DNA of 64,000 nt from Candidatus Parcubacteria bacterium (GTDB taxonomy: Bacteria > Patescibacteriota > Minisyncoccia > Phycocordibacterales > Zambryskibacteraceae), in contig JAIFWP010000002.1 of assembly GCA_019661785.1 (NCBI GenBank), forward strand, positions 39,059-103,058. Direction: 5' to 3'. Of this stretch, positions 4,174 to 18,645 are shown in pieces. Both the position numbers and the translations under genes were made by a program. The notes beneath the pieces are model-generated. The model was not told the DNA's origin. It did no database searches and saw nothing but the letters and a program-made list of their open reading frames with translations. Each line of letters begins with the position of its first letter. Positions within the stretch are counted from its first letter, which is position 1.

Positions 4174-4246
4174 GGGTGGCTATCGGGAGTTGAACCCGAA
4201 CTAGAAGCTCCACAAGCTCCTGTGCTACCGCTACACCATAGCCACC
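4174..4246 (-). tRNA. tRNA-His (anticodon GTG)
   Basis: A cloverleaf that reads GGTGGCTATGGTGTAGCGGTAGCACAGGAGCTTGTGGAGCTTCTAGTTCGGGTTCAACTCCCGATAGCCACC on the minus strand. It has an extra 5' G paired with the discriminator C, and the anticodon loop is TTGTGGA. Confidence 0.8.
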
Positions 4247-4276
4247 ATCATGGTCACTGTAGCGCTAAACAAATTG

Positions 4277-4359
4277 TGCGCGGGAGAGGATTTGAACCTC
4301 CACACCCAGAGGGCGCTACCACCTCAAGGTAGTGCGTCTACCAATTTCGCCACCCGCGC
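4277..4359 (-). tRNA. tRNA-Leu (anticodon GAG)
   Basis: The minus-strand sequence GCGCGGGTGGCGAAATTGGTAGACGCACTACCTTGAGGTGGTAG has the anticodon loop TTGAGGT and the long variable arm of class II tRNAs. Confidence 0.8.
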
Positions 4360-4371
4360 AATAAGGCTATA

Positions 4372-4773
4372 CTACTTCACTTCTACAGATTCCTCAACAG
4401 GAGCGGCCTCAACCTCCGGAGCGGCTAAGCGGACATTACGCATCTGGCGTCGGATCTCCTTAGCTGCCTTGTCGCGTATATGGTAGAGCTTGGAGCGTCG
4501 TACCTTGGAGCGCTTGGTTATCTCGATCTTGTCTATCATAGGAGAGTAGAGCGGGAAGACCTTCTCGACGCCCACGCCTGAAGCTACGCGGCGCACAGTG
4601 AAGGTGGCTCCGGCTTCGGTACCGTGCTTCCTTGCGAGGACTAGGCCCTCAAAGGCCTGGAGGCGGGTCTTACCCTTCTCCATAATCTTCTGCCAGACGC
4701 GCACGGTGTCACCCGACCTAAGGTCGAGCTTCTGGCGGTCTTCAGTCTTGACTGGACTTATAACTCTTTGCAT
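4372..4773 (-). CDS. rplS: 50S ribosomal protein L19
   Basis: A 133-aa protein with VRRAKLYHIRD-type L19 motifs and an acidic C-terminal extension. Confidence 0.85.
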
Positions 4774-4817
4774 TAGGGAACCAATTTACCACGTCTTTGT
4801 ATATATGACAAATGGAA

Positions 4818-4841
4818 AGGCGCGTACGATTGTACGCGCCT
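4818..4841 (-). terminator. Rho-independent terminator after the GC-rich KH-domain gene
   Basis: A perfect 10-bp stem aggcgcgtac / gtacgcgcct with a gatt loop. On the minus strand it is followed by TTTCCATTTGTCAT. Confidence 0.6.
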
Positions 4842-4852
4842 GTTGCTTGTGA

Positions 4853-5383
4853 TCAAATCTTCACGAGCCTGATCCTCACGCCATGCTTCTTGCTGAGCTC
4901 GTTCACCTTCACGCCCTTCTTGCCGATGACTCGGCCCATGAACTCCTTCGGGCAGCGAACCTGGCCGCTCTCCGGGATTCGGATGACGAGCACCTTGCAC
5001 GTATCAGACCGGCGTACCCCTGGCCTGTGGTCGGTCGAATGGCCAGCCCAAACCAGGTCGTAACCCTTGGGCTTGTAGGCTCGAGACATCCCGTAGGCCT
5101 GCCGCCGGGGCAGAAGCGCGACATCGGCATCCCCCGGAAAGCTGCTCTGCATGCTCTCGATGAGTTCTTCTTCCGTTTCGACAAAATCGAACCAGAGCCC
5201 CATCACCCGCTTCGCATCTTCAAGGCTATCAAACTGATGCGGACCGCTGTGGTGTATGGGTCCACCAAGATGCTGGTAAAGCCTGACCACACCAGTAAAG
5301 CCGACCTCCGCTGGCTCGAGATCAAGCACATAGCAGTTGCCCCAGTTACTGACAGAAATGAGCCTGGTAACCATTTTATGCAC
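4853..5383 (-). CDS. KH-domain protein with uncharacterised N-terminal domain (GC-rich, foreign-looking)
   Basis: The C-terminus VIGKKGVKVNELSKKHGVRIRLVKI is a type-II KH motif. G+C and GC3 are much higher than in neighbours, there are no ATA codons, and a strong AGGAGGG Shine-Dalgarno precedes the ATG. Confidence 0.45.
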   Translation of the reverse strand: MHKMVTRLISVSNWGNCYVLDLEPAEVGFTGVVRLYQHLGGPIHHSGPHQFDSLEDAKRVMGLWFDFVETEEELIESMQSSFPGDADVALLPRRQAYGMSRAYKPKGYDLVWAGHSTDHRPGVRRSDTCKVLVIRIPESGQVRCPKEFMGRVIGKKGVKVNELSKKHGVRIRLVKI

Positions 5384-5434
5384 CCTCCTGTGGGTTTAGG
5401 AGCATGGCTGCTCCGAGTGAAAGAACTCGCTATA

Positions 5435-6145
5435 TTATATACCAGAAATACCTATTTTGTCAAGTGCTGTTTGGAAGTCATTTGGATAGGGCGCAACCAC
5501 AACGTTTTTCTCCCCTTTTACATTTGTGAAAGTTGCTTGGCGGGCATGGAGGGCCAGGCGCTCGAACCCGAGGAGTTTAGGTTTGGTGCGAGCATAGAGA
5601 GGGTCGGCTACGACTGGGTGGTGTAAGGCCTTGAAATGCACGCGTATCTGATGAGTGCGTCCCGTCTTCGGCTTGGCCTCGACTAGGCTCACCTCGGGAG
5701 TCTTCTTCATCACTTGGTAGTAGGTTACAGCCTCTCTTAGCTCGCCTCTGGCTCCCCTCTCAGCCGAGCGCTTGCGGAAGTCGGATGCGCTCTTACCAAT
5801 GGGCAAATTGATAGTGCCATGGTCCTCTTGGAATTCACCATATATGAAAGCATGATAGATCTTCTCTATCTCATGGTTTTGGAATTGTTCCTTGAGACAT
5901 GCATGGCCCTCCTTGGTCTTGGCCAAGAGCAAAACTCCACTCGTCTCGCGGTCTATCCTATGCACTATGCCTGGACGAGGAATATCTCCTAGAGGCTCCC
6001 CCACATCCTTGGCCTCTGGATATTTGCTCACGAACCACTCAGCCACACTCGGCTCCTTAGTATGTCCGTCCGCATGCACAACCAACCCCGCAGGCTTATT
6101 TATAGCCAGGATATCATCGTCCTCATATAAGATTTCTATTTTCAT
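5435..6145 (-). CDS. RluA-family 23S rRNA/tRNA pseudouridine synthase
   Basis: Carries HRIDRETSGVLLLAK, the catalytic-Asp motif, and GRTHQIRVH. Confidence 0.8.
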   Translation of the reverse strand: MKIEILYEDDDILAINKPAGLVVHADGHTKEPSVAEWFVSKYPEAKDVGEPLGDIPRPGIVHRIDRETSGVLLLAKTKEGHACLKEQFQNHEIEKIYHAFIYGEFQEDHGTINLPIGKSASDFRKRSAERGARGELREAVTYYQVMKKTPEVSLVEAKPKTGRTHQIRVHFKALHHPVVADPLYARTKPKLLGFERLALHARQATFTNVKGEKNVVVAPYPNDFQTALDKIGISGI

Positions 6146-6166
6146 GCAACTTTTCGCTCGACGTTG

Positions 6167-6239
6167 TGGGAGATACAGGACTCGAACCTGTGACCTTCTC
6201 AGTGTAAATGAGTTGCTCTACCAACTGAGCTAATCTCCC
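6167..6239 (-). tRNA. tRNA-Val (anticodon TAC)
   Basis: The minus-strand sequence GGGAGATTAGCTCAGTTGGTAGAGCAACTCATTTACACTGAGAAGGTCACAGGTTCGAGTCCTGTATCTCCCA has the anticodon loop TTTACAC. Confidence 0.8.
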
Positions 6240-6279
6240 AATGGTCCGATACTATCATATAATGTATGCTCTTTGCATC

Positions 6280-6361
6280 GAGCATGTGGCGGAATTGGTA
6301 TACGCGTACGGTTCAGAACCGTATCCCGTAAGGGTTGGGAGTTCGAGTCTCCCCATGCTCA
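6280..6361 (+). tRNA. tRNA-Leu (anticodon CAG)
   Basis: The acceptor stem is GAGCATG/CATGCTC, the anticodon stem-loop is TACGG-TTCAGAA-CCGTA, and there is a long variable arm plus a T-loop TTCGAGT. Confidence 0.8.
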
Positions 6362-6368
6362 CCCTCAA

Positions 6369-6430
6369 GGCAAAAGCAAAAATAAAACGCCGAGGGTGAT
6401 TTGTCTCGCCGTTTTATTTTTACTTTTGCC
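6369..6430. terminator. Long AT-rich inverted repeat, probable bidirectional terminator between convergent tRNA-Leu and DUF4383 gene
   Basis: The arm ggcaaaagcaaaaataaaacg pairs with cgttttatttttacttttgcc (21-nt arms, one mismatch). The arms flank an inner GC hairpin. Confidence 0.4.
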
Positions 6431-6435
6431 GAATC

Positions 6436-6804
6436 TTACATCGAGCCAGACCTCTTCGACATAGCTCCCCAGAGGAAGATAATGCCCAAGATGAGGTGGA
6501 GCCAATTGTCAGCGGCGTTAACCATAACAAGTCCGAGTACGGAACCCGTAGAGGAGAAGAAGCCGAGCAGGGCCATCAAGAGGTAAATAACGCCGAAGAC
6601 CTTCAAGGTAGTGGCGGCCTTGTGAGCTGCCCCATAAGCTACCCAGAGGAAGATAATGCCCGAGATAAGGTGCACGAGGTTGTGCGCCGTATCTGCCATG
6701 AACAATGCTCCAGATGACGAGCCTATGAGAGGGTTGTTAAAGAAGCCAAGAACACCGAGGACGATGAAGATCCAACCGAAGATCATCGCGAATTTCTTTG
6801 CCAT
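6436..6804 (-). CDS. DUF4383-like membrane protein with internal duplication
   Basis: A 4-TM protein containing two copies of the motif DxAHNxxHLIxGIIFLW[VG]A. Confidence 0.5.
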   Translation of the reverse strand: MAKKFAMIFGWIFIVLGVLGFFNNPLIGSSSGALFMADTAHNLVHLISGIIFLWVAYGAAHKAATTLKVFGVIYLLMALLGFFSSTGSVLGLVMVNAADNWLHLILGIIFLWGAMSKRSGSM

Positions 6805-6894
6805 ATTGTTAAGACTTGATAATCGATTATCTAATAAGGAACAATAAAATTATACAATGTAAATAGTTATGATAATGTATAGCTGTTGATAAAG

Positions 6895-6969
6895 GCCTCC
6901 ATAGCTCAATGGATAGAGCAGCGCTCTTCTAAGGCGTTGATGTGGGTTCGATTCCTGCTGGAGGCACCA
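6895..6969 (+). tRNA. tRNA-Arg (anticodon TCT), CCA encoded
   Basis: The sequence GCCTCCATAGCTCAATGGATAGAGCAGCGCTCTTCTAAGGCGT... has the anticodon loop CTTCTAA. Its 3' end is TGGAGGCACCA. Confidence 0.85.
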
Positions 6970-6971
6970 AA

Positions 6972-7253
6972 TTACTTCGAAGGATCTGGGGTGGTTTCTG
7001 GAACAGCTTTGACTCGGTCGAAGGCGGCACGCTTCTCATCGTAGTAGAGTGCGGCTCTATGTAGAGCGTTCTTGCTTAGAACCTCAGTGGCTATGTCGTC
7101 CTGCGGCAACGGCTTCACCTGCACTAGAGAGAACATCGCTATGCTGCCCACAATAGCGAGCACGAGCAGTATTAGGAAAATGCTAAACATTATCTGCCAA
7201 TCTGCCTGAGGAGAGTACCCCCATTTTTTGAAAGGATTATTCATATCACTCAT
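6972..7253 (-). CDS. Small single-TM protein at distal end of pilMNO operon (PilP-like position)
   Basis: A 93-aa protein with one TM helix. It overlaps the pilO-like stop and is co-oriented with it. Confidence 0.35.
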   Translation of the reverse strand: MSDMNNPFKKWGYSPQADWQIMFSIFLILLVLAIVGSIAMFSLVQVKPLPQDDIATEVLSKNALHRAALYYDEKRAAFDRVKAVPETTPDPSK

Positions 7254-7761
7254 TTAGTACAGTAAGAGCGAAGGTGTAATTGCCGCGCCAACCCTTGTCG
7301 CTCTGCGCGAGCTTGGCGTCGTCGACTGAGGCTTTGTACGGCAAGTTCTCTAGCATGTGAAGGAGTGTGAGATTCGATGCCCAGGTCCCCGTTGAGTCGA
7401 CAGCGATCTTCACTGTCATGGGAGTGCCGGTGGCCGAGGACGTGCCACCACTGATGGAAGCTATCGTTACTCCAAGACCGAGACTCTTGCCGAAGCTCTC
7501 TATCTGCGAGATGACATCAACGAGCTCAGTCTTAGTCACTGCCACTTTGTCTAGACGCGCTATGTCGTCGGCTTCAGACTGCTTAAGCGCACGCAGTCTC
7601 TGAGTGCGGCTGCCTGTGCCCGTGCGGGCCGACGCCTCGGCCGCGATGCTCGCGGCCTCGCTCCTCGCCTGCATCGTTACGGCAAACTCCTTAACCAGCG
7701 CTGCGCCAAGGATTACGAGTACTATGAGCCTCAGTACGAAAGATAGGGTAACGTGTCTCAT
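7246..7761 (-). CDS. pilO: Type IV pilus assembly protein PilO-like
   Basis: An N-terminal TM segment, then a coiled-coil, then a periplasmic domain. It sits third in a pilM-N-O arrangement with 4-nt overlaps. Confidence 0.4.
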   Translation of the reverse strand: MRHVTLSFVLRLIVLVILGAALVKEFAVTMQARSEAASIAAEASARTGTGSRTQRLRALKQSEADDIARLDKVAVTKTELVDVISQIESFGKSLGLGVTIASISGGTSSATGTPMTVKIAVDSTGTWASNLTLLHMLENLPYKASVDDAKLAQSDKGWRGNYTFALTVLNE

Positions 7762-8333
7762 AACTTTGGCATTAAGTTGAGCTGGAAATCGATATTGCTG
7801 TCCTTAGCCAAGTTATTCACCGGGAAGTCGACCTTTGTGAATTCTCCCGAGGCTACCAAAGAGCTCTGGAACCTGAGCAAAGTATCCCGGTCAGGCGCCT
7901 TGCCCTTGGCTATCATGCTATTTCCCGCCTTAGAGTAGGAGAGGCTCGTTATGCGTATAGTGGCAGGCTTCAGCTGGAGCATATCTGTGAAGTACTCGTA
8001 GGGGGCCGATGACGATGCTGCCGGTGAGAGCGCAGCGAGTTCTGTCCTGAGGCCTTGAGCCCAACTTGATAGAGACTCGGCCTCGCTTGTGTCGGTAGCC
8101 GCTCTGGCCCCTGAGAGCTCGACAATAGCGGCGTTCTTCTTGCCGAGAGAAAGTATGAGTGCTGGAGAGAAAACGACTAAAGCGAAGACAAGTAGAAGTG
8201 AAGCGAGAGTGAGAGCTGCCCTGGCTCGACGGGATTGATACTCTGCTTCCACCTTCAACTTTTCCTCTATTGTAAGCAGCTTATACATAGAGTTGGCGGC
8301 TAGGCGGCAGAAGAGCTCCGATAGCCGGAGCAT
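7758..8333 (-). CDS. pilN: Type IV pilus assembly protein PilN-like
   Basis: A short cytoplasmic N-terminus, a single TM (LTLASLLLVFALVVF), and a periplasmic domain, with the gene order typical of pilN. Confidence 0.45.
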   Translation of the reverse strand: MLRLSELFCRLAANSMYKLLTIEEKLKVEAEYQSRRARAALTLASLLLVFALVVFSPALILSLGKKNAAIVELSGARAATDTSEAESLSSWAQGLRTELAALSPAASSSAPYEYFTDMLQLKPATIRITSLSYSKAGNSMIAKGKAPDRDTLLRFQSSLVASGEFTKVDFPVNNLAKDSNIDFQLNLMPKL

Positions 8334-9150
8334 AGCGAAGCGACTCTCTGAAAGGCATCTCCGGAAGCCTGTGTTTGAAAGCTCTCACATTGACCCACAC
8401 ATTCCCTACGGAGTAAGGCGTATCCACCTCTCGCAGGAGCTCTGCGATGAAGGCGTCGTCCTCTGCGCCAACGCCCGTGAGAGTGACATGCTCTATCTTC
8501 TTATCCTTAGAGAAAAGGAAAACTTTGCGTATCTCGTTCTTGAGTAAGGCCATGGACTCTGTAGTATGGACACTCAAGTCTATAGGCAAAGTTGAGCTGA
8601 AGCGCACCATCTCGCTCTCGACTAAGTAGAGTCCGGTCTTAGTCTCGCTCAGGTCTAGGATGAGATACGCGCGAACATCGCCTCTCTCTATGAGCGCTCG
8701 CGCAACAGCCTCAGAGCGGAGGTCGTAGGATACTGGGGTAATGCCCGCAGCGCTCCACTCCTTGGCGTAACTCTCGGCCACATCGAGCGGCAAGACGGAC
8801 ACTGAGGCGGGAATGCTCTTCCCTTCCGCACTCGGCTCGCCCTCATACTCGAAGGAGTGCACGGATGTGGCGAGCTTCACAGGGGCGTTCTCCTCCACCG
8901 TGGAGGCCACGGCATCGCCCAAGTCTTTATAAGTAGCTGACTCAACCTTGATATTGAATACGTACGCCTTGTCATCTGGGATAGCCACACTTACGAAGTG
9001 GAAGCCCATAGCCTTGAACTTGTCCAAACTCATCTCTCCATAGCGAAATGGACTCAAAGAGATATATCTCACTATGCTACCCTCGACAGACACTCCTGCT
9101 TCAGCCAGATTCATATACTTAGGCGCAGGGAAAAGATCAAAAAAACTCAT
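8281..9150 (-). CDS. pilM: Type IV pilus assembly protein PilM-like (actin-like ATPase fold)
   Basis: A 289-aa protein with a PilM-like layout: the motifs AYLILDLSETKTGLYLV and LTGVGAEDDAFIAELL. It is first in the operon. Confidence 0.5.
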   Translation of the reverse strand: MSFFDLFPAPKYMNLAEAGVSVEGSIVRYISLSPFRYGEMSLDKFKAMGFHFVSVAIPDDKAYVFNIKVESATYKDLGDAVASTVEENAPVKLATSVHSFEYEGEPSAEGKSIPASVSVLPLDVAESYAKEWSAAGITPVSYDLRSEAVARALIERGDVRAYLILDLSETKTGLYLVESEMVRFSSTLPIDLSVHTTESMALLKNEIRKVFLFSKDKKIEHVTLTGVGAEDDAFIAELLREVDTPYSVGNVWVNVRAFKHRLPEMPFRESLRYAPAIGALLPPSRQLYV

Positions 9151-9183
9151 CTTGAGATTATATCACCGACATATCATTAAGTA

Positions 9184-9510
9184 TTACTTCACCTTAAGAC
9201 CGACTGGCGTGTCATCACTCACGCGCAAAAGAGAGAAAACAGTGTCTGTAGAGACAGCAAGTATCATGGCCTCGCTCGTAAGGCCCATGAGGGGTCTTGG
9301 TTCGAGATTCGTGGCAAAAGCACATCTTATGTTGACCAAATCCTGCGGATTTGGAAAATGTTTTCTAATCCCCGAGACTACAGTGCGCGGGCGCTCCTCG
9401 CCGAAATCCACTGTGAGCTTCAAGAGCTTGTCGCTTTGCTCGATGATCTCTACCGCTTTTATCTCCCCAATGCTTATCTCCCCCTTCTTGAATTCATCAA
9501 TTGTTATCAT
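9184..9510 (-). CDS. tRNA-binding domain protein (CsaA/Trbp111, MetRS C-terminal-like)
   Basis: KAVEIIEQSDKLLKLTVDFGEE...NLEPRPLMGLTSEAMIL is a typical OB-fold tRNA-binding domain. Confidence 0.7.
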   Translation of the reverse strand: MITIDEFKKGEISIGEIKAVEIIEQSDKLLKLTVDFGEERPRTVVSGIRKHFPNPQDLVNIRCAFATNLEPRPLMGLTSEAMILAVSTDTVFSLLRVSDDTPVGLKVK

Positions 9511-9890
9511 TTTGCTCTAGAGTCTATATAACTTTTTAATATGAGTGCCGCGGCCGAGGCATCGAGCATAGCATTCTCACCTTGGAGCTGCTTGGCCTCG
9601 AGCGAGGTGAGCATCTCTGGGTGGAGCACTACCTCTATGCCATGATCTTCGAGTGCTTGCTTGAAGACTGCTATCTCCGCCTGTATATCATTCGGCTCAC
9701 CCTTGAAGTCCTTCGACTCGCCGAGGATAACCCTCTCTACACCCTCTGCCTCACACATCTTCACTACCTCAGAAACCAAGTGGTGATCGTTTGGCAGAAC
9801 CGCTCTAGGCAGAGCGAACTCCCCTCGGCTATCAGTCGAGGCTACTCCCACCTTCTTTGAACCATAGTCTATACCCATGAGTCTCATCAT
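9507..9890 (-). CDS. ruvX: Holliday junction resolvase-like YqgF/RuvX
   Basis: The N-terminus MRLMGIDYGSKKVGVASTD and the C-terminus AAALILKSYI are both characteristic of this family. Confidence 0.8.
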   Translation of the reverse strand: MMRLMGIDYGSKKVGVASTDSRGEFALPRAVLPNDHHLVSEVVKMCEAEGVERVILGESKDFKGEPNDIQAEIAVFKQALEDHGIEVVLHPEMLTSLEAKQLQGENAMLDASAAALILKSYIDSRAK

Positions 9891-10137
9891 AGATAGATAT
9901 TATTATAACTGGTATACTAGCACCATGCTTAATTGGATAAACACGCACCCCTTCCTTAGCCTCCTTATCGTAGCCTGGACCCTAGCTTGGAAGGGTCTTG
10001 CCCTCTGGAAAGCCGCCGAGAGGAACCAGAAGTACTGGTTCGTCGCCATGCTTGTGGTGAGCACAGTGGGCATACTCGAAATCATCTATATCTTCTTTAT
10101 AGCTAATAAGTACAAGGTCGAAGTAATCCAAGACTAA
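9877..10137 (+). CDS. DUF5652-like small membrane protein
   Basis: An 86-aa 2-TM protein. The motif WKGLALWKAAERNQKYWFVAMLVVSTVGILEIIYIF is typical of a small family common in CPR genomes. Confidence 0.45.
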   Translation: MSLIIDRYYYNWYTSTMLNWINTHPFLSLLIVAWTLAWKGLALWKAAERNQKYWFVAMLVVSTVGILEIIYIFFIANKYKVEVIQD

Positions 10138-10141
10138 TCTG

Positions 10142-10228
10142 CGGAGGAGGTGAGATTCGAACTCACGGTAGCCTTTCGACCACGACAGTTTTCAAGACTG
10201 TTGCCTTAAACCGCTCAGCCACTCCTCC
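10142..10228 (-). tRNA. tRNA-Ser (anticodon TGA)
   Basis: The minus-strand sequence GGAGGAGTGGCTGAGCGGTTTAAGGCAACAGTCTTGAAAACTGT has a long variable arm and a discriminator G. Confidence 0.8.
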
Positions 10229-10251
10229 AAGGCCTATGCTACAATTTATTC

Positions 10252-10722
10252 GTGGCTAAATCTACCTTCACACTCGAGTGGCAGGCCCGAGAGTACGAGC
10301 ATAAGGAGCGTTCTCAAGACTGGTTTTGGGCGGCTGGCATCATCACTGCGGGGCTTGCGCTCGTCGCTTTCATCTTCGGCAATATCATATTTGGCATCCT
10401 TATACTCCTCTCGGCCTTCTCGCTCGCCCTGTTCATAAACCGTCCTCCAACAGATTTGCATATAGCCGTAACAGAGCTTGGGGTAACGCGAGGAAAGCTC
10501 TTCTACCCTGTTGAGACCTTAGCCTCCTTCTGGATAGACACCGACCACCCGCACAAGAAAGTGATACTCCGCTCTAAGAAGTTGCTCATGCCGCTTGTCG
10601 TCGTGCCTCTTGGCGAAGACGTCGACCCTGAGCGCTTGCACAGCCTTTTTATGAAAATCTTGCCCGAGGAATATCACCCTCTCCCCTTGCCCGAAAAGGT
10701 TTTGGAGTATTTGGGATTCTAG
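10252..10722 (+). CDS. Hypothetical 2-TM membrane protein with C-terminal soluble (bacterial PH-like?) domain
   Basis: A 156-aa ORF. No family match is confident from sequence alone. Confidence 0.45.
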   Translation: MAKSTFTLEWQAREYEHKERSQDWFWAAGIITAGLALVAFIFGNIIFGILILLSAFSLALFINRPPTDLHIAVTELGVTRGKLFYPVETLASFWIDTDHPHKKVILRSKKLLMPLVVVPLGEDVDPERLHSLFMKILPEEYHPLPLPEKVLEYLGF

Positions 10723-10747
10723 TCCCTGTATGATAATCTGACGACAC

Positions 10748-10819
10748 GCTCCTGTCGTTCAACGGATAGGACATCAGATTGCGGATCTGAAAATCCAGGT
10801 TCGATTCCTGGCAGGGGCA
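10748..10819 (+). tRNA. tRNA-Arg with anticodon GCG (unusual isoacceptor)
   Basis: The sequence reads GCTCCTG TC GTTC AACGGATA GGAC A TCAGA TTGCGGA TCTGA AAAT CCAGG TTCGATT CCTGG CAGGGGC A. The anticodon stem is a perfect 5 bp, and the loop TTGCGGA gives anticodon GCG. Confidence 0.6.
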
Positions 10820-10826
10820 CAAACAT

Positions 10827-10853
10827 GAAAAAAGCGACACGGGTCGCGTTTTT
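10827..10853. terminator. Bidirectional rho-independent terminator (tRNA-Arg / rpsT)
   Basis: The hairpin gcgac-acgg-gtcgc is flanked by AAAAAA on one side and TTTTT on the other. Confidence 0.55.
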
Positions 10854-10932
10854 CAGTTTGTGCCGGCCGGAGCGCGACGGCGCGAGGCGGGGTCGCGAGC
10901 GCTTTCGGTAGAAAGCGACTTGTGACCACATT

Positions 10933-11196
10933 TTACGAGAGTTTCTTTACCATCTGTGCAAGACGGCTTTTGCGGCGGGAGGCGGTGTTCTTGTCGAGGG
11001 CGTGGGTCTTCACGGCCTTGTCGAGAGCCTTCTGGGCCGTGCGGAGGGCGAGAGCGGCCTCCTTCTTCTTACCGCTGGCTACGAGCTTCTTCACCTCTTT
11101 GACGGCGTTCACTGAGGAAGTCTTCTTGGCCTGATTGAAGACGCGCTTCTTGTCGGAGCTGCGGAGGGCCTTCTTGGCGCTTCGTGTAATTGGCAT
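10933..11196 (-). CDS. rpsT: 30S ribosomal protein S20
   Basis: An 87-aa basic helical protein. The motif MPITRSAKKALRSSDKKRVFN is typical of S20. Confidence 0.8.
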   Translation of the reverse strand: MPITRSAKKALRSSDKKRVFNQAKKTSSVNAVKEVKKLVASGKKKEAALALRTAQKALDKAVKTHALDKNTASRRKSRLAQMVKKLS

Positions 11197-11218
11197 GCCG
11201 AGATGCTATCATACCCGC

Positions 11219-11791
11219 ATGATTGGCACAATCTCCGGCACAGTGCGTCATAAGGATTTGCACACCATTATCGTCGATGTAGGAGGGGTCGGATATAAGG
11301 TCTTCTCTACTACAGACACGGCTCTTGAAGCGACTGAAAATGGCCCCATCTTCCTCTGGACCTACCTCTCGGTTAAAGAAAATGCCCTTGACCTCTTCGG
11401 CTTCCTCGACAAGGACAACTTGGATGTCTTCGAGCTCCTCATAGGCATCTCAGGCATTGGACCAAAGACCGCTCTCTCAATACTTAATGTCGCGACCCCG
11501 GCTATGCTCCGACAGGCAGTGGCCTCGGACGACACCACTTACCTCACTAAAGTCTCCGGCATAGGCAGGAAGAACGCCGAGAAGATAGTCCTCGAGCTCC
11601 GAGACAAGCTCGTCACGACAGTCTCCGACAAGCGAGGAGACATGCGCGCAGAGGGAGATGTCATGGAAGCGCTACTCTCGCTTGGTTACGACGAGAGAGA
11701 TGTGCGCGGCGTGCTAAAGAAAATCCCAAAGGACTTAGAGAAAACGAGCGAGAGAGTCAAAGCCGCCCTAAAACTCCTTTCAAACGGATGA
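11219..11791 (+). CDS. ruvA: Holliday junction branch-migration complex subunit RuvA
   Basis: The sequence MIGTISGTV...GVGYKV...LIGISGIGPKTALSIL has HhH motifs. The ORF-track start at 11135 overlaps rpsT, so the ATG at 11219 is preferred. Confidence 0.8.
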   Translation: MIGTISGTVRHKDLHTIIVDVGGVGYKVFSTTDTALEATENGPIFLWTYLSVKENALDLFGFLDKDNLDVFELLIGISGIGPKTALSILNVATPAMLRQAVASDDTTYLTKVSGIGRKNAEKIVLELRDKLVTTVSDKRGDMRAEGDVMEALLSLGYDERDVRGVLKKIPKDLEKTSERVKAALKLLSNG

Positions 11792-13074
11792 TAGACGACG
11801 TCCTGCACTCTATTAAAAGATTTATACCAAAGCGCCTCTTCGACGCTCTGGCTCCGGCATACCACTACACATTAGCTTTCTTTGGAGCTCTCATCTTCGG
11901 CTTCCCTTCTAAGAAGCTCCTGGTCATCGCTGTCACTGGCACCAAGGGTAAGTCGAGCACAGCCGAGATGGTAAATGCTATCTTCGAGGCAGCCGGACAC
12001 AAGACCGTGCTCATATCCACCATCCGCTTCAAGGTCGGCGAGGACTCGAAGCCCAACAAGAGAAAGATGACTGTGCCAGGACGCTTCTTCATCCAGCGCA
12101 TGTTAAGGGCGGGTCTCCGACAAAATTGCGATGTAGCAATTTTGGAATTATCGAGCGAAGCCGCCAGACAATACCGGCACAAGTTCATATACCTAGATGC
12201 GCTCATCTTCACGAACCTCTCACCAGAGCATATCGAGAGCCACGGCTCCTTTGAGGCATACCGTAGAGCCAAGCTATCGCTCACGGAGACTTTGTGTAGG
12301 AGATTAAAGAAGCACAGCATCATCGTCGCCAATGCTGACGACCCAGAGGCTCACCACTTCCTGAAGTGCGGAGCCGTGGACCAGCGTCCCTTCTCTCTCC
12401 GCGATGCTGAGCCGTACGAGGTGAAGGCAAACGGAGTGAAACTCACCTTCCGCGGCATGAGCATCGAGTCGGGGCTCCGGGGCGAGTTTAATATAAGGAA
12501 CATCTTGGGCGCAGCTACCTGTGCTGAGGCTCTCGGCGTATCTCTCTCAGCTATTAAAGAGGGGGTGGAACAATTATCAATCATCAAGGGCCGAGTAGAA
12601 TTCGTGAAGTTAAATGGCGAGACCGAGCAAGACTTCGACATAGTAGTCGACTATGCGCATACATCCGGCTCACTCACCGAACTCTACAAAGCCTTCGGCA
12701 ATCAGCGCAAAATCTGCGTATTGGGCAACACTGGCGGCGGCAGGGATAAGTGGAAGCGCCCTGAGATGGCTCGCGTGGCTGACACCTTCTGCGACGACGT
12801 AATACTAACGAACGAAGACCCTTACGATGAGAACCCTGACAAAATCATCGAGGAGATGATGCCCGGCTTTAAACTCCACACTCCTGCCGTTGTCATGGAT
12901 CGCCGCGCTGCCATAGCTGAAGCCCTAAGGCGCGCCAAGGGCGGCGATGCCGTGCTCATCACAGGTAAAGGCACCGACCCATACATCATGGAAGCAAATG
13001 GTAAGAAAACTCCTTGGTCCGACTACGAAGTGGCCAAAGAAGAGTTGGAAAAACTTTTGAATAAGAATGCCTGA
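11788..13074 (+). CDS. murE: Mur ligase family protein, MurE-like (UDP-N-acetylmuramoyl-tripeptide synthetase)
   Basis: Carries VTGTKGKSSTAEMV (a P-loop) and the Mur ligase middle and C-terminal domains. Its start overlaps ruvA by 4 nt. Confidence 0.65.
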   Translation: MIDDVLHSIKRFIPKRLFDALAPAYHYTLAFFGALIFGFPSKKLLVIAVTGTKGKSSTAEMVNAIFEAAGHKTVLISTIRFKVGEDSKPNKRKMTVPGRFFIQRMLRAGLRQNCDVAILELSSEAARQYRHKFIYLDALIFTNLSPEHIESHGSFEAYRRAKLSLTETLCRRLKKHSIIVANADDPEAHHFLKCGAVDQRPFSLRDAEPYEVKANGVKLTFRGMSIESGLRGEFNIRNILGAATCAEALGVSLSAIKEGVEQLSIIKGRVEFVKLNGETEQDFDIVVDYAHTSGSLTELYKAFGNQRKICVLGNTGGGRDKWKRPEMARVADTFCDDVILTNEDPYDENPDKIIEEMMPGFKLHTPAVVMDRRAAIAEALRRAKGGDAVLITGKGTDPYIMEANGKKTPWSDYEVAKEELEKLLNKNA

Positions 13075-13918
13075 ACTGCCTGAGGTACAGACAACGGTCA
13101 ATGGCTTGAATGCCACTGTACGAGGTAAAAAGATTGTTGACGTCTGGACCGACTACAAGAGCACGCACAAAATGCATCGCGGGAGCGTGAAGGAGGCTAA
13201 ATTTTATAAAGAATTCTGCCAGAAGGTTACTGGCCAGAAGATTATTAAAGCCGAGCGCAGGGCTAAGAACATTTTGATACACCTTAGTGGCGGACACACT
13301 ATCCTCGTGCATATGAAGATGACGGGACACTTCGTTTATGACAGGCCGGAGTATCCGCATGTGCGATTCAGCCTTAAGCTCGATAATGGCAAGACTCTCG
13401 CTCTCTCAGACATGCGCCGCTTCGCCAAGATAACGGTTATCGACACTAAAAATCTTGATACATCACTCCATCTTGGTAACATCGGCCCGGAACCGCTCGA
13501 AACATCCTTCACTTATCCCAAATTTAAAGAGCGCTTGCTCACGAAGCCCAAAGGCAAGATAAAGACCGTGCTCATGGACCCATCTGTCGTAGCTGGCATA
13601 GGCAACATATACTCCGATGAGATACTCTGGCGCGCGTGCGTGCATCCAGTATCTACAGTAAACAAAATCCCAGAAAAGAATTTGAAACTAATGTTCACTG
13701 CTATGAAGGAGACTCTCAATAAGGGTATAGACTTCGGCGGCGACTCCATGAGCGACTATAGGAACATCAAGGGTGAGCGAGGCGACTTCCAGAACCATCA
13801 TGAAGCCTATAGGCGCACAAACCAAAAGTGCTCGAGAGACAAAGGAATTATAAAAAGATTAGTAGTTGGCAGCCGCTCAGCGCACTTCTGTCCCGTACAT
13901 CAGAAACTATTTCAGTAA
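13067..13918 (+). CDS. mutM: Formamidopyrimidine-DNA glycosylase (Fpg/MutM)
   Basis: The N-terminal catalytic motif MPELPEV and a C-terminal CxxC...CxxH zinc finger are both present. Confidence 0.8.
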   Translation: MPELPEVQTTVNGLNATVRGKKIVDVWTDYKSTHKMHRGSVKEAKFYKEFCQKVTGQKIIKAERRAKNILIHLSGGHTILVHMKMTGHFVYDRPEYPHVRFSLKLDNGKTLALSDMRRFAKITVIDTKNLDTSLHLGNIGPEPLETSFTYPKFKERLLTKPKGKIKTVLMDPSVVAGIGNIYSDEILWRACVHPVSTVNKIPEKNLKLMFTAMKETLNKGIDFGGDSMSDYRNIKGERGDFQNHHEAYRRTNQKCSRDKGIIKRLVVGSRSAHFCPVHQKLFQ

Positions 13919-14401
13919 TTGGTAGAGCGCTATGCCTGTTGCTACAGAGACATTTAAAGACTCCTTCTCCCCTTTCATCTCTATCTCTACTATCTCGTCC
14001 GACATATCTAGCGCTTCTTTAGATACTCCGTCCACTTCGTTGCCAATGATCAACGCAAAAGGTTCTAGGTGCTTGGTTCTAGGTTCTAGCTTTTGGGCCC
14101 GAGAATCTTGTTCAAGGGCGATGATTCTAAAATTTTGAGATTTAAGTTCTTCGATAACTGGTCCAATATCTTTGACATACTCCCACTCGAGCATATCCTC
14201 AGAGCCTAGAGAGACCTTGGCGAAGTCCGCGCGCTTGCGGCCAAAGCGGTCAAGCGGAGCAGGAGTTGTGCCTATTAGATAGACTTTTGAGACTCCGAGC
14301 CCCTCAGCAGTACGAAATATAGAAGCCGTATTCTCTACGCTCCGGAGATTGTCTAGGACTAAAATCATGCTTCTCATGGTCAGATTAGGACATGGTATCA
14401 T
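13907..14401 (-). CDS. SpoU/TrmH-family RNA 2'-O-methyltransferase
   Basis: Carries ILVLDNLRSVENTASIFRTAEGLGV, IIGNEVDGVS and VATGIALYQL. The true start is probably an internal Met (near 14368-14377). Confidence 0.65.
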   Translation of the reverse strand: MIPCPNLTMRSMILVLDNLRSVENTASIFRTAEGLGVSKVYLIGTTPAPLDRFGRKRADFAKVSLGSEDMLEWEYVKDIGPVIEELKSQNFRIIALEQDSRAQKLEPRTKHLEPFALIIGNEVDGVSKEALDMSDEIVEIEMKGEKESLNVSVATGIALYQLLK

Positions 14402-14767
14402 TTGGGCATGCTAAATCCATTCCCCGAACTACTCAGTTACTCGACCTTGGCCCCTTTCATATTGAGAGTGGTCCTTGGGCTCGTCTTCCTCGACCTTGGT
14501 ATTTTAAAGATAAAGAGGAAACACCTTAGTTGGCCAGCCCTGCTTGGCGCCATAGAAGTGATAGGGGCCATCATGCTCTTCGTCGGCTTCTACACTCAGA
14601 TAGCCGCTCTCGCCATAGTTATCACCACAGCCACCGAGCTATATATAGAGTGGAAGGATTCTCAAGTACTGAAGGGTGACTTCGTCTTCTATCTCCTCCT
14701 CCTCGCTATCTCCCTCTCACTTCTACTCACCGGTGCCGGTGCCTTCGCCAGAGATATCCCCTTATAG
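14402..14767 (+). CDS. DoxX-family membrane protein
   Basis: A 121-aa 3-4 TM protein with a DoxX-like N-terminus RVVLGLVFLDLG..K. Confidence 0.45.
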   Translation: MGMLNPFPELLSYSTLAPFILRVVLGLVFLDLGILKIKRKHLSWPALLGAIEVIGAIMLFVGFYTQIAALAIVITTATELYIEWKDSQVLKGDFVFYLLLLAISLSLLLTGAGAFARDIPL

Positions 14768-14885
14768 TCTGTTTGTGGTCACGGATAGTTTTCTGCTGAA
14801 AACTTCCTCGACCCCGCCTCGCGCCGCCGCGCTCCGGCCAGCACAAACCGCAAAAAGCAGCTCAGGCTGCTTCTTTGTGTGTTTG

Positions 14886-14956
14886 TGCTCCCACATGGAA
14901 TCGAACCATGATCAATTGCTTAAAAGGCAACTGCTCTACCACTGAGCTATGGGAGC
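14886..14956 (-). tRNA. tRNA-Lys (anticodon TTT)
   Basis: The minus-strand sequence GCTCCCATAGCTCAGTGGTAGAGCAGTTGCCTTTTAAGCAAT... has the anticodon loop CTTTTAA. Confidence 0.85.
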
Positions 14957-14974: not shown

Positions 14975-15394
14975 CTATTTCCTCGACGAAGTCGAGGTTG
15001 CTAGAGTGCCGTTCATGGTGAGGGCGGATATCTCGACTACCTTGTTCTCCGATGGTCTCCAGAGCACAGCGCGCTTGGCTATCGGGTATATGAGCACCTG
15101 GTCTCCAGCTTTTGAATTAATAAAGAAGGGTTGATTAACAAGCTTCGACGGATCGGAGACAGTTGCCACTGTTGGTACCTCACTCGAAGGAAGCACTGCG
15201 GCATATGAGACCTTCTCTACTATCTGCCTTACCTTGTCTTCGGCCGAGAGAGCTGGAGCGCGATAAATCTCTAGCTGCTTCAACATGAAGAACATGGAGA
15301 CTAGGAGCAATACTACAAGGAGGGTCAGCGCTAAGGTGACACGGCGAACGTTCTTCGGCACTCGCTTGAAGAACTTATTATAGTAATCAATCAT
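14975..15394 (-). CDS. Hypothetical membrane-anchored protein downstream of giant repeat protein
   Basis: A 139-aa protein with an N-terminal TM anchor and no recognised domain. Confidence 0.4.
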   Translation of the reverse strand: MIDYYNKFFKRVPKNVRRVTLALTLLVVLLLVSMFFMLKQLEIYRAPALSAEDKVRQIVEKVSYAAVLPSSEVPTVATVSDPSKLVNQPFFINSKAGDQVLIYPIAKRAVLWRPSENKVVEISALTMNGTLATSTSSRK

Positions 15395-15402
15395 CCCCTA
15401 CA

Positions 15403-18400
15403 TTATGGGGCCAGACCGGGGTCAGAAGCAATGTCTAGAGTGGGTTCAGGAGTTGATGGAGTGTCTGAGGACTCTGGAGCAGGCTCTGTCGCAGGAGGCT
15501 CGCTCACAGTATCTGTAGTAGTGGCCTCCGGAGCAGAAGGAGGGGTCGTTATAGTCGCCGAACCCGCAGTGGAGCAGACACCCTGAGTCTTCACCATCTC
15601 TCCGTTCGTTACCTGGAGACAATATGTAGCGCCAGTAGCTGTATCTGTCATCTCAATGCCTTGCGTGACCTTCAAGGTAGCAGTCTCAACTCTTGTGAAT
15701 ATGCCGAGCGCGGCAGTAACCTTGCTGCCTACCCACTCAAGAGCATTCTGCAGGGCATTGTTAGGTGCCTGTGATATCTGCATAGAGCCCTCGAGAGAGG
15801 CAATCCTAGAAGCGAGGTTATCTATAGTCGGGCTATCGATGCGATCTGCATATACAAGGCCTGCGGTGAGCTTCGGAGTGATGATTTCTAGCCCTGCCAT
15901 CAAGCGGTCAGTGCTTATCTCAGATATATAGCCTATTGTCGTCAGGCTGCCTTCCATAAGAGCAGCGAGAACATTCCTTGAGTCAGGTAATGCGCCGTTA
16001 ACGGCGAGTCCTGGCAAATGCTCGGCTGATAATCCTGAGTAATAGGAATTCTTAACGAATATCATAATCTTCCCCACTCCTCCCCCCGAGTATCCCTCAA
16101 GAGCCTGGCCTATGACCACTCCGGCCTTGAGAGCCTTAGCACCTACGCCGGGAGTGGATGATAGCGATAGATAATCTCCGGCTTTGATAGCGCCGTTCTC
16201 TATAGTGACCTTGAGCGGCACGCGTCCTGCCAGAGCTATAGGCACATCGCCTGGGCGGTTCTCCGCATCTGGGCCCGAGCCTAATACGACGCCAGGCTTC
16301 GTAGAGACGACACCCATCATCTTATCCTTCTCGCCGAGTACAGCCTTAGCTACACCAATACCACTCACAACACTCACCACGTCTCCAGGCTCCAAAGCCT
16401 CATTAGCCTGGTACATTTCCGCCAAGTCGGAGTTGCCGATGAACGTGGACACTGACGATATGCGGCCTGTAGTGGAAGCGGTACACCAGCCATCGCTGTC
16501 AACACAGAGACCTCCCTTCAAAATGTTCAACCCCGAGGGCGTCTTACCATCACCTATAAGCACATACTGGCCAGTAGGTATGCCCATGCCGACTGCGGCA
16601 GTAAGACCGGTGGTTGTAGCGCCGAAGAACTGGATGGTAGATGTACCTGCGCTGTTGTTGAAGGACATCAGAGGATACGCGTTGGTAGCGGTGCTCGTGG
16701 CAATAACCCAGGCCTGGTCAGTGAGCTGGAGAGTGGTGGTGGAGCGGTTCAAGAAGTTCTGGAACCCGGCCTTGTAGTTCACCTGGTCAGTCGACACGTT
16801 ACCGAAGTTCCCGGTTGTAGCAAAGAAGTTCGTTGTAGTCGCCTGCGTCGAAGTCGAGTTCTGGGTGAATAAGTTCTGAAGCGTTGTAGAACCAATAGCT
16901 AAGAAGTTCGTCGTGAATAAGTTAGTTGAAGTCGCGGAAGTGGTTGTGCCTTGGGATGCAAAGAAGGTCTGCAGCGTTGTAGAACCAATAGCCAGAAATG
17001 CCGTAGTGTAGAGGTTCGTGGATGTGGCTGAAGTGGTAGTGCCTTGAGCGGCAAAGAAGTTTTGCAGCGTGGTTGAACCGATAGCGAGGAAGTTGGTTGT
17101 AAATAAGTTAGTCGAGGTTGCCGAGGTCGTAGTGCCTTGAGCAGCAAAGAACTTCTGTAGGGTGGTGGAACCAATGGAGAGGAAGTCAGTGGTGTAGAGG
17201 TTCGTGGATGTGGCAGAAGTGGTTGTGCCCCTTTGAGCAAAGAAGTTTTGGAGAGTAGTGGAGCCTATGGCCAAGAAATCTGTTGTAAATAAGTTCGTGG
17301 ATGTGGCAGAAGTGGTCGTTCCTCTCTGAGCAAAGAAGTTCTGAAGCGTTGTCGAACCTATAGCCAGGAAGTTCGTTGTGAATAAGTTGGTAGAGGTAGC
17401 GGAGGTTGTGGTCCCAGCAGTTGCGGTAAAGAGCTGCAGGGTCGTCGAGCCATTGGCCAAAAGGTTTGTGTAGTAGAGGTTTGTGGCCGTAGCGGACGTA
17501 GAGAAGAGGGCCTGGAAGGAGGAAGATGCAGTAACCAGAAGGTTTCCGGCGTATAGGTTCGTAGCAGTAGCTGACTGGACAAAGAGCTTTTGCAAGGTGG
17601 TGGAACCAATGGAGAGGAAGTCAGTGGTGTAGAGGTTCGTGGATGTGGCAGAAGTGGTTGTGCCTTGAGTTGAGGTGAATCTCTGCAGAGTAGTGGAGCC
17701 GACAACAAATAAATCCCCTGTTCCATTGAACGATGATGTGGCGGTAATGCCGAAGAAGGCGCTTCCGGCAGACAACACTGTCGAGGAAGAGTTGTTGAAA
17801 GTATTCAACAAGCTCCAAGAGTTGGCCGTTGTCGTCGAGAAGTTGAGAGAGAGAACGCTTGATCCGCTCAAGAGAAGCGGGTATGTGGCGGTGAAGCTAG
17901 CTGATGATACGGATGATGCTCCGACACAAACATTATTTATAGAGAAGCAACCCGTCGATATATTGAAGCCGTTTGATGCGGTAGTCGTTGCGCTCCCGAG
18001 TGTGAGCGCGCCGCTAATGCTGACTGTAGATGAGAAGGTCCCCGTGATAGATACGATGTCATCAAGACTTCTTGAGATGGAGCTTGATACGTTAGAAACA
18101 TTTCTATCGCTCTGCTTAGATATCGTCTCGCGCATATTGCTGATGGCAGCTTGCAGAGCAGAAAACTTTTCTTGTATCAAAGGATCAATCCTATATGTCG
18201 ACAGCGCGGCGGACGATATTGCGGCTGGGGCGGAAATAGTTTTGGCCGGAGCAATCTTAACTGGAACAGGTTTCGCCTGAGTAGCTGACTGTGTCGTCTC
18301 TACCAAAGTTCTCTCAGCTGGGTTCACTAAAGATTTAATGATTGAGAGAGCGGAGGCTGCAGTCTGCGTAGCGCTGTTCATCGTTTCGAAAGCGGCGGCT

Positions 18401-18645
18401 TTCAGATTCTCTGCCCCTCTCGTGATATTGGACACAATCTGCTTTGGCTCTACGACAACTACCTGACGGACAACTTCGTGATACGGCAGCGTAGGCAAGC
18501 TGGTGCTCCCGCCCACGGCTGCTATGAGAGCGCCAACCCTGCTCGCATCGAACTGAGCCGGATTCTTAAAAGTCTCAGCGTGTATAAGAGACGGCAGAAG
18601 AAGGATGGTGAATGAAGCGGCTGCAAAAGTTTTCCTGACGTCCAT
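15403..18645 (-). CDS. Giant secreted surface protein with 31-aa tandem repeats (adhesin/S-layer-like)
   Basis: A 1080-aa protein with an N-terminal signal peptide. It contains about nine copies of GSTTLQNFFAQRGTTTSATSTNL[FY]TT[DN]FLAI and a Cys-containing C-terminal domain. Confidence 0.6.
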   Translation of the reverse strand: MDVRKTFAAASFTILLLPSLIHAETFKNPAQFDASRVGALIAAVGGSTSLPTLPYHEVVRQVVVVEPKQIVSNITRGAENLKAAAFETMNSATQTAASALSIIKSLVNPAERTLVETTQSATQAKPVPVKIAPAKTISAPAAISSAALSTYRIDPLIQEKFSALQAAISNMRETISKQSDRNVSNVSSSISRSLDDIVSITGTFSSTVSISGALTLGSATTTASNGFNISTGCFSINNVCVGASSVSSASFTATYPLLLSGSSVLSLNFSTTTANSWSLLNTFNNSSSTVLSAGSAFFGITATSSFNGTGDLFVVGSTTLQRFTSTQGTTTSATSTNLYTTDFLSIGSTTLQKLFVQSATATNLYAGNLLVTASSSFQALFSTSATATNLYYTNLLANGSTTLQLFTATAGTTTSATSTNLFTTNFLAIGSTTLQNFFAQRGTTTSATSTNLFTTDFLAIGSTTLQNFFAQRGTTTSATSTNLYTTDFLSIGSTTLQKFFAAQGTTTSATSTNLFTTNFLAIGSTTLQNFFAAQGTTTSATSTNLYTTAFLAIGSTTLQTFFASQGTTTSATSTNLFTTNFLAIGSTTLQNLFTQNSTSTQATTTNFFATTGNFGNVSTDQVNYKAGFQNFLNRSTTTLQLTDQAWVIATSTATNAYPLMSFNNSAGTSTIQFFGATTTGLTAAVGMGIPTGQYVLIGDGKTPSGLNILKGGLCVDSDGWCTASTTGRISSVSTFIGNSDLAEMYQANEALEPGDVVSVVSGIGVAKAVLGEKDKMMGVVSTKPGVVLGSGPDAENRPGDVPIALAGRVPLKVTIENGAIKAGDYLSLSSTPGVGAKALKAGVVIGQALEGYSGGGVGKIMIFVKNSYYSGLSAEHLPGLAVNGALPDSRNVLAALMEGSLTTIGYISEISTDRLMAGLEIITPKLTAGLVYADRIDSPTIDNLASRIASLEGSMQISQAPNNALQNALEWVGSKVTAALGIFTRVETATLKVTQGIEMTDTATGATYCLQVTNGEMVKTQGVCSTAGSATITTPPSAPEATTTDTVSEPPATEPAPESSDTPSTPEPTLDIASDPGLAP
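16726..17700. repeat. 93-bp tandem repeat array inside the giant surface-protein gene, including a 69-bp exact duplicate
   Basis: The protein repeats recur every 31 aa from about residue 316 to 640. The DNA segment ggtggtggaaccaatggagaggaagtcagtggtgtagaggttcgtggatgtggcagaagtggttgtgcc occurs identically at 17161-17229 and 17596-17664. Confidence 0.7.

Follow-up and report, generated by a model that had tools for sequence, protein, structure and literature searches.

The gene analysed here is a single minus-strand open reading frame (ORF) at 15403..18645 of a stretch of 64,000 nucleotides, referred to as the window, from a Candidatus Parcubacteria metagenome-assembled genome, or MAG (GenBank assembly GCA_019661785.1, contig JAIFWP010000002.1, positions 39,059 to 103,058 of the forward strand). 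It encodes 1080 aa and corresponds to the NCBI hypothetical protein KW800_00875 (P0001; P numbers denote proteins and L numbers loci), which matches the window protein at 100%, belongs to a Candidatus Parcubacteria MAG and is encoded on a 236-kb contig, the only contig on which the exact protein was found. We consider it probable that this protein, from a bacterium of the Candidate Phyla Radiation (CPR), is exported through Sec and forms a homotrimeric surface fibre resembling a phage tail fibre, probably autocleaved between S739 and D740, in which the number of repeats sets the length of the shaft. An earlier note, made from the DNA letters alone, had described a "giant" surface protein with tandem repeats; at 1080 aa the protein is large, and the word overstates its size. 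The note missed the defining feature, a C-terminal module of the type found in gp12 of phage phi29, in view of which the repeats are better read as the shaft of a presumably trimeric tail-fibre-like structure. This phage-tail-fibre-like architecture, with its gp12-type domain in a conserved cellular gene, is a more informative result than the repeats. The parts of the gene are the following, from its 5' end onwards:

15403..18645, minus strand: fibre gene, 1080 aa, NCBI hypothetical protein KW800_00875
18577..18645, minus strand: signal-peptide-like N-terminus as read from the sequence, aa 1-23 (MDVRKTFAAASFTILLLPSLIHA|ET)
17701..18576, minus strand: N-terminal region, aa 24-315, with a conserved helical motif and the Cys pair 233/240
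16801..17700, minus strand: repeat array, aa 316-615, with ten units (seven of 31 aa, two of 26 aa and a degenerate one at the end); presumed fibre shaft
17596..17664, minus strand: exact 69-bp copy 1, aa 328-350, within unit 316
17161..17229, minus strand: exact 69-bp copy 2, aa 473-495, within unit 461
16429..16800, minus strand: non-repetitive conserved region, aa 616-739, ending in GGLCVDSDGWCTASTTGRISS...NS, with the Cys pair 714/721
16006..16428, minus strand: putative intramolecular chaperone or trimerisation domain of the phi29 gp12 type (Peptidase_G2-like), aa 740-880
15676..16005, minus strand: helical, coiled-coil-like segment, aa 881-990, with low-confidence helices in AlphaFold2 (AF2) models and heptad-like in orthologues
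15568..15675, minus strand: small beta-hairpin module with the Cys pair 1009/1024 (GIEMTDTATGATYCLQVTNGEMVKTQGVC); AF2 predicted local distance difference test (pLDDT) 73-88
15406..15567, minus strand: acidic Pro/Thr-rich tail, aa 1027-1080 (P 22%, T+S 33%, D+E 17%, K+R 0)

The gp12-type domain and its family

Whole-protein searches of NCBIfam and PDB gave no matches, and that of PHROGs gave weak tail-fibre matches only. In Pfam the only match was a sub-threshold one to Peptidase_G2 (PF11962) at aa 724-790 (E 1.4e-3, 18.6 bits), and Peptidase_S74 (PF13884) was not matched. Homologues were compared segment-wise by phmmer; full-length blastp coverage without composition correction was discarded as spurious, since it arose from Thr/Ser-rich low complexity. 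All named homologues in the protein search belonged to the CPR/Patescibacteria (Parcubacteria, Paceibacterota, Zambryskibacteria, Vogelbacteria and Saccharimonadales), and a genome scan later extended the list to Kaiserbacteria and to a single locus in a MAG that bears the label Omnitrophota. The block most widely shared among these homologues was aa 723-880. In an alignment of 32 diverse members D740 and E743 were invariant and A742 was conserved in at least 90%, which defines a motif D-[LIFVY]-A-E at the domain boundary (D740-L-A-E743 in the window protein, with a predicted autocleavage site at S739|D740); GVVST.PG, ALAGRVPVKV and GD.L..S..PG were conserved as well. The profile built from these 32 members (A1) matched the C-terminal fragment of phi29 gp12 in the PDB (3gqh_A, E 5.7e-4), and 17 of the members matched PF11962 individually (best E 4.4e-6). 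The match to 3gqh_A begins at residue 1 of that chain (DFAEYFE...), opposite D740-L-A-E. We take this residue to be the new N-terminus made by autocleavage of gp12, in which the conserved acidic residues of the motif presumably have a catalytic role. Because the invariant D-x-A-E is in register with the gp12 cleavage site, autocleavage of the window protein at S739|D740 is likely, as far as can be judged from the alignment.

Structure prediction agreed with the profile match. In an AF2 model of aa 693-1045, aa 737-870 were modelled with a pLDDT of 86-98, aa 889-983 were helical with low confidence, and a hairpin at aa 997-1021 was reasonably confident. A Foldseek search with the domain model matched 3suc, the pre-mature form of gp12, indicating that both domains have the same fold. 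The domain was also detected in phages: tblastn against phage genomes revealed copies 35-38% identical, starting at the S|D boundary. One is at the end of gp359 of Pseudomonas phage PA5oct (L006 1969-3405), a virion structural protein detected by mass spectrometry and encoded beside a long-tail-fibre gene, and another ends an unannotated protein of Agrobacterium phage Atu_ph07 (L007 1567-3390). Both carry ADLAE, GVISTKPG and ALAGRVPVKV at their extreme C-terminus, the domain ending 10-15 aa before the stop codon. These carriers in jumbo phages are annotated merely as structural or hypothetical proteins.

In order to size the family, the domain profile was run in a full HMMER scan against 1.84 billion representatives of protein clusters at 50% identity, which returned 30,273 proteins at E <= 1e-3, of which 25,740 also passed E <= 1e-10. 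Family proteins reach 6,814 aa, two tandem copies of the domain are common, and in the examples listed from the scan the distance between the domain and the C-terminus is usually 250-450 aa. A further, word-indexed search with the domain profile yielded mostly short fragments without names and no additional taxonomy. The search for related loci with the single window sequence gave only distant giant relatives. Two relatives from GTDB genomes, of 2,370 and 2,432 aa (L003 301-7413 and L002 163-7461; Kaiserbacteria and Patescibacteria MAGs), have the domain near the C-terminus, and the 2,370-aa one has LVIVD repeats too, along with a bacterial-surface Ig-like domain. The Omnitrophota copy (L005 807-1196, 47% identity) is on a 9-kb contig of a Candidatus Omnitrophota MAG and reflects either spread outside the CPR or mis-binning.

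About a dozen other proteins have units of the repeat type found in the window protein, recognised by their opening motif GSTTLQ, ahead of the gp12-like domain. Such units are also present in CPR proteins whose C-terminal end is a genuine Peptidase_S74 chaperone of the endosialidase type: P0009 (E 1e-10), P0021 (E 8e-8), P0052 (E 1e-11) and P0047 (E 2e-10). On these sequences, the repeat module regularly precedes a phage-type fibre-assembly domain of one or the other of two unrelated kinds, and this pairing is the main argument that the repeats would form a trimeric fibre shaft. In the literature searched, no paper was found that connects chaperones of the S74 or G2 type with CPR proteins.

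Export, assembly and fate of the domain

Inspected by eye, the N-terminus has features that point to Sec export: its n-region is positively charged, its core is hydrophobic, and a putative cleavage site can be read as IHA|ET. An equivalent signal-peptide-like N-terminus is present in seven of the seven orthologues in which this end is intact (P0002, P0003 and P0005-P0008 among them). Moreover, the six cysteines form three close pairs (233/240, 714/721 and 1009/1024), which fits an extracytoplasmic location. The suggestion made earlier of a secreted, Thr/Ser-rich repeat protein is thus supported by its predicted features. Between the signal-peptide-like segment and the repeats, the helical motif takes the form L..LENQ...LR.LI.RQSD.N in orthologues, in a region (aa 24-315) of low AF2 confidence. 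The region following the repeats, aa 616-739, is conserved in P0002-P0008 and had no sequence relative in the PDB; it is predicted to contain the last residues of the mature fibre. Behind the gp12-like domain, the beta-hairpin Cys module recurs in P0002, P0004, P0006, P0007, P0024, P0028 and P0038. Across the family (besides the window protein, P0003, P0005, P0015, P0016, P0022 and others) two alternative Cys modules were seen after the domain, the hairpin of the window protein (...TG..YC......G...K..G.C) and a module KxLCIxDxC(V/I)TxxQLxxLL; both are followed by an acidic tail rich in Pro, Thr and Glu, and neither matches a Pfam family.

Based on this anatomy, the following route of assembly can be proposed. 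The chains would be exported unfolded, and the C-terminal module, comprising the gp12-type beta domain and the coiled-coil-like segment, would align three of them in register and template the folding of the upstream beta-rich shaft of 31-aa Thr/Ser-rich units. The module would then probably be removed by autoproteolysis between S739 and D740 by means of the D-x-A-E motif. Shaft length would be set by the number of units, whose protein sequence would be under strong purifying selection because each unit is structural, and copy number would change rarely, through in-register unequal recombination. A comparable logic has been described for Peptidase_S74 fibres, in which a C-terminal chaperone folds a trimeric beta fibre and then cuts itself off (PMC4690869).

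Several points weigh against this proposal. The isolated domain scored 22.4 bits and the whole protein 18.6 bits against PF11962, both short of the 25-bit gathering cut-off. No cell-anchoring signal was found, the tail having neither a transmembrane (TM) segment nor a sorting signal or LPXTG motif. The repeats were poorly modelled by AF2 as a monomer (see below), and both the shaft fold and the trimer are therefore putative. Finally, about 200 residues follow the domain in the window protein, whereas in phi29 and in the other phage proteins it is at the extreme C-terminus; instead of being a chaperone that is cut off, the domain may thus stay in place as a trimerisation knob.

This last possibility, which we regard as rather unlikely, retains the same fibre, with the domain left uncleaved in the manner of the trimeric phage capsid cement or decoration proteins; in that case the mature protein would include the coiled coil, the Cys hairpin and the Pro/Thr tail, perhaps at its cell-proximal end. 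It draws on the conservation of those 200 residues, unlike the situation in the phage proteins, on the typical placement of the domain in the large family at 250-450 aa from the C-terminus, often in tandem duplicate, and on the identity of the best structural neighbours after 3gqh_A, which are cement and decoration proteins without protease activity (Pam3 gp6, the HFTV1 capsid stabilisation protein, the base of the phi29 gp8.5 head fibre, TW1 and XM1 gp53). These neighbours bind capsids as small, free-standing proteins that lack an upstream fibre, and their fold match is weaker than that of gp12. The invariance of the D and E of D-x-A-E at the gp12 cleavage position, in all 32 diverse members as well as in the phage homologues, argues instead for a domain that cleaves.

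Taking the protein as an autocleaved fibre, its closest known counterpart is the phi29 gp12 pre-neck appendage (Peptidase_G2, PF11962; PDB 3gqh and 3suc), from which it differs in being cellular and having a signal-peptide-like N-terminus, in carrying a novel shaft of 31-aa repeats where gp12 has a pectate-lyase-like beta-helix upstream of the domain, and in the approximately 200 extra residues (coiled coil, Cys hairpin and Pro/Thr tail) after it. The Peptidase_S74 fibres, such as the K1F endosialidase, the L-shaped tail fibre pb1 of T5, the GA-1 appendage and the eukaryotic MYRF, would follow the same assembly logic, and in P0009, P0021, P0047 and P0052 the GSTTLQ repeats are joined to true S74 domains; the window protein has no S74, and its chaperone-like domain is of the unrelated gp12 beta-fold type.

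The architecture, together with the episymbiotic lifestyle of CPR bacteria, suggests that the fibre may act as an adhesin that attaches the cell to a host or substrate. The majority of CPR bacteria are thought to live in attachment to other cells, and the molecules of attachment are essentially unknown outside Saccharibacteria, for which essential predicted adhesins have been reported (PMC11665869). In this context the fibre gene offers a testable candidate class, which would combine phage tail-fibre logic with export from the cell and a conserved chromosomal site, and through the C-terminal domain, which Pfam covers poorly, such proteins can be retrieved in their tens of thousands. It is conceivable, and we propose it tentatively, that CPR/Patescibacteria have adopted the gp12-type assembly domain at very large scale (about 30,000 clusters, with members as long as about 6,800 aa) to build Sec-exported trimeric fibres with interchangeable shafts and tips, and that lineage-core fibres of this kind could determine host recognition and attachment; the family would also define a cellular form of the domain, with a coiled coil, then a Cys module and then a Pro/Thr tail behind it, of which no description was found in the literature searched. 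The interest of the family would be higher if these fibres were indeed the determinants of host recognition in CPR bacteria.

Anatomy and evolution of the repeat array

The 31-aa (93-bp) repeats reported earlier are real. Tandem Repeats Finder delimited an array at 16871-17388 with a period of 93 bp (5.6 copies, 74% matches; alternative period 186 bp), and a repeat search of the DNA gave 6-7 in-register copies at 93-bp spacing with 64-76% DNA identity. The array had been described as some nine copies at residues 316-640; it does start at residue 316, and it comprises ten units and ends near aa 615. Canonical 31-aa units start at aa 316, 399, 430, 461, 492, 523 and 554, 26-aa units at aa 347 and 373, and the degenerate terminal unit at aa 585. 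The motif GSTTLQ is found at all of these starts except that of unit 373, which opens with ASSSFQ, and Thr and Ser make up 41% of the array.

Canonical units are 77-94% identical to each other in protein and only 60-77% in DNA, and in pairs of units other than 316/461 identical residues are encoded by the same codon in 12-56% of cases (mean 38%). A peptide so constant over scrambled synonymous sites indicates, as read from the codons, that the array is old and has been kept by purifying selection on the protein, and that it is neither recently amplified nor undergoing concerted evolution. The pair 316/461 departs from this pattern, sharing 92% of codons, owing to a 69-bp tract repeated exactly at 17161-17229 and 17596-17664. 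This duplicate, which had been pointed out before, was verified at 69 of 69 positions; its copies are 435 bp apart and the identity cannot be extended. At the background rate of codon sharing, 23 consecutive identical codons would be expected by chance with p ~2e-10, and the tract probably marks a single recent event of gene conversion or duplication. Since no other exact repeat of at least 25 bp was found in the gene, this pair is the sole good substrate for homologous recombination, which between the two copies would delete 435 bp in frame.

The fold of the units was addressed by modelling; the earlier note had suggested a prediction of their structure (beta-helix or beta-solenoid). An AF2 monomer model of aa 196-739, covering the repeats and the knob, was all-beta, at low confidence, with long hairpins; its mean pLDDT was 47.6, rising to 65-75 over aa 490-580, which was too poor for a fold search that might tell beta-helix from solenoid. 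Hydrophobic autocorrelation was weak at a half-period of 15-16 aa (about 0.15) versus 0.97 at 31 aa, and a profile of the repeat and knob region matched PDB sequences at chance level only.

Comparison with orthologues showed that arrays do change in length. P0002, a 75%-identical orthologue, lacks exactly 186 aa (6 x 31 aa, in register), with the start of unit 399 joined to the end of unit 585. In the other positional orthologues unit counts were taken from motif spacings, as follows:

P0003: seven units of 31 aa
P0004: four units of 31 aa
P0005: alternating units of about 32 and 26 aa
P0007: units of 16 aa
P0008: units of about 41 aa

With unit lengths of 16, 26, 31 and 41 aa across orthologues, the length and composition of the shaft are, on this sequence comparison, labile between species. 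No paralogues of fibre segments were found elsewhere in the window. Outside it, the same MAG encodes at least two mosaic paralogues that share GSTTLQ units, P0019 (KW800_02090) and P0038 (KW800_02815), and in the latter a GSTTLQ unit is accompanied by GNVGIGTTTP repeats, by the gp12-like domain and by the Cys hairpin seen in the window protein.

These differences bear on the view, put forward in the earlier note, of a hypervariable, contingency-type adhesin or S-layer-like protein whose array is frequently resized by recombination in order to vary the surface, a view that we consider improbable. Whole-unit differences in copy number such as the 6 x 31 aa relative to P0002, the perfect 69-bp repeat with its in-frame 435-bp deletion, and the mosaic paralogues of the same MAG are what such a protein would display. 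On the other hand, units that share only 60-77% of their DNA and 12-56% of their codons are ancient and not homogenised, and one exact tract in the whole gene leaves little for recombination to act upon. An S-layer identity found no backing, as neither SLH nor any other S-layer family was matched in Pfam or NCBIfam. The comparison of repeat number among relatives yielded the six-unit difference from P0002; strain-level relatives (above 90% identity) and near-identical variants were found in none of the databases searched, and in the orthologues compared no sign of rapid switching within a population was seen. Of the earlier interpretation, change in repeat number over evolutionary time is supported, and a ready substrate for switching is not. 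Tandem-repeat adhesins of the Gram-positive alpha C/Rib and Bap/Esp types are likewise secreted and differ in repeat number between lineages. Their DNA repeats are near-identical and recombine readily; those of the window protein are 60-77% identical, and neither LPXTG nor another anchor was found in it. The practical message for the repeats as first noted is that the array is best regarded as a conserved structural shaft.

An origin of the array or of the 69-bp duplicate as an assembly artefact, be it by chimeric joining of strain variants or by collapse or expansion of the repeat, is very improbable. In its favour, the MAG was assembled from short reads, an identity of 69 bp is longer than common k-mer sizes, and a single contig carries the exact protein. 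Exact-match scans of metagenome contigs and GTDB genome contigs with the 69-bp repeat gave no matches, and the array is therefore without an independent assembly. Nevertheless, the ORF is intact and in frame across the array, independent assemblies share the unit consensus and comparable array lengths (e.g., the seven 31-aa units of P0003), and the first unit reads LYTTDFLSIGSTTLQK in other assemblies as well. Adjacent units are also too diverged to collapse, in disagreement with the earlier warning that such arrays are prone to it: with 60-77% identity and scrambled synonymous sites, the DNA of the array appears too diverged both for routine recombinational switching and for collapse during assembly.

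Chromosomal setting of the fibre gene

The fibre gene is surrounded in the window by polA, a holA-like gene (DNA_pol3_delta_C), a gene for a small membrane protein, tRNA-Lys, and genes for DoxX, a SpoU methylase and fpg. The order polA, holA-like gene, fibre gene and a gene for a protein of 137-142 aa was found in the window and in three other assemblies, that is, in four genomes, the fibre proteins at these syntenic loci being 45-54% identical. Conserved housekeeping synteny in four genomes establishes that the fibre gene is a conserved chromosomal gene of the lineage, and therefore cellular and not part of a prophage. That it is nonetheless a prophage, tailocin or phage-derived tail-fibre gene, as its C-terminal domain shared with the phi29 gp12 tail appendage and the PA5oct virion structural protein might suggest, is scarcely credible given the signal-peptide-like N-terminus, the housekeeping genes and tRNA where phage structural or lysis genes were sought and none found, the same position and neighbours in four genomes despite divergent fibre proteins, and the bacterial surface Ig-like and LVIVD domains borne by relatives.

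The gene that follows the fibre gene encodes a candidate partner of the fibre:

14975..15394, minus strand: conserved gene for a 139-aa protein that has a TM helix at its N-terminus, 8 bp past the fibre stop codon

This gene adjoins the fibre gene in the three other loci too, its product being 47% identical to the L001 copy, and a Pfam search with the 139-aa protein gave no match. This membrane protein may be an anchor or assembly partner of the fibre. A scan for promoters and terminators remained at background level. Eight tRNA genes are distributed across about 11 kb upstream of the locus (window 4174-14956), the tRNA-Lys gene at 14885-14956 directly after that of the small membrane protein. 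The strongest GC skew of the window in 2-kb blocks, +0.18, was in the block 16000-18000, and is due to the Thr/Ser codon bias (ACC, ACT and others) of the minus-strand repeat region.

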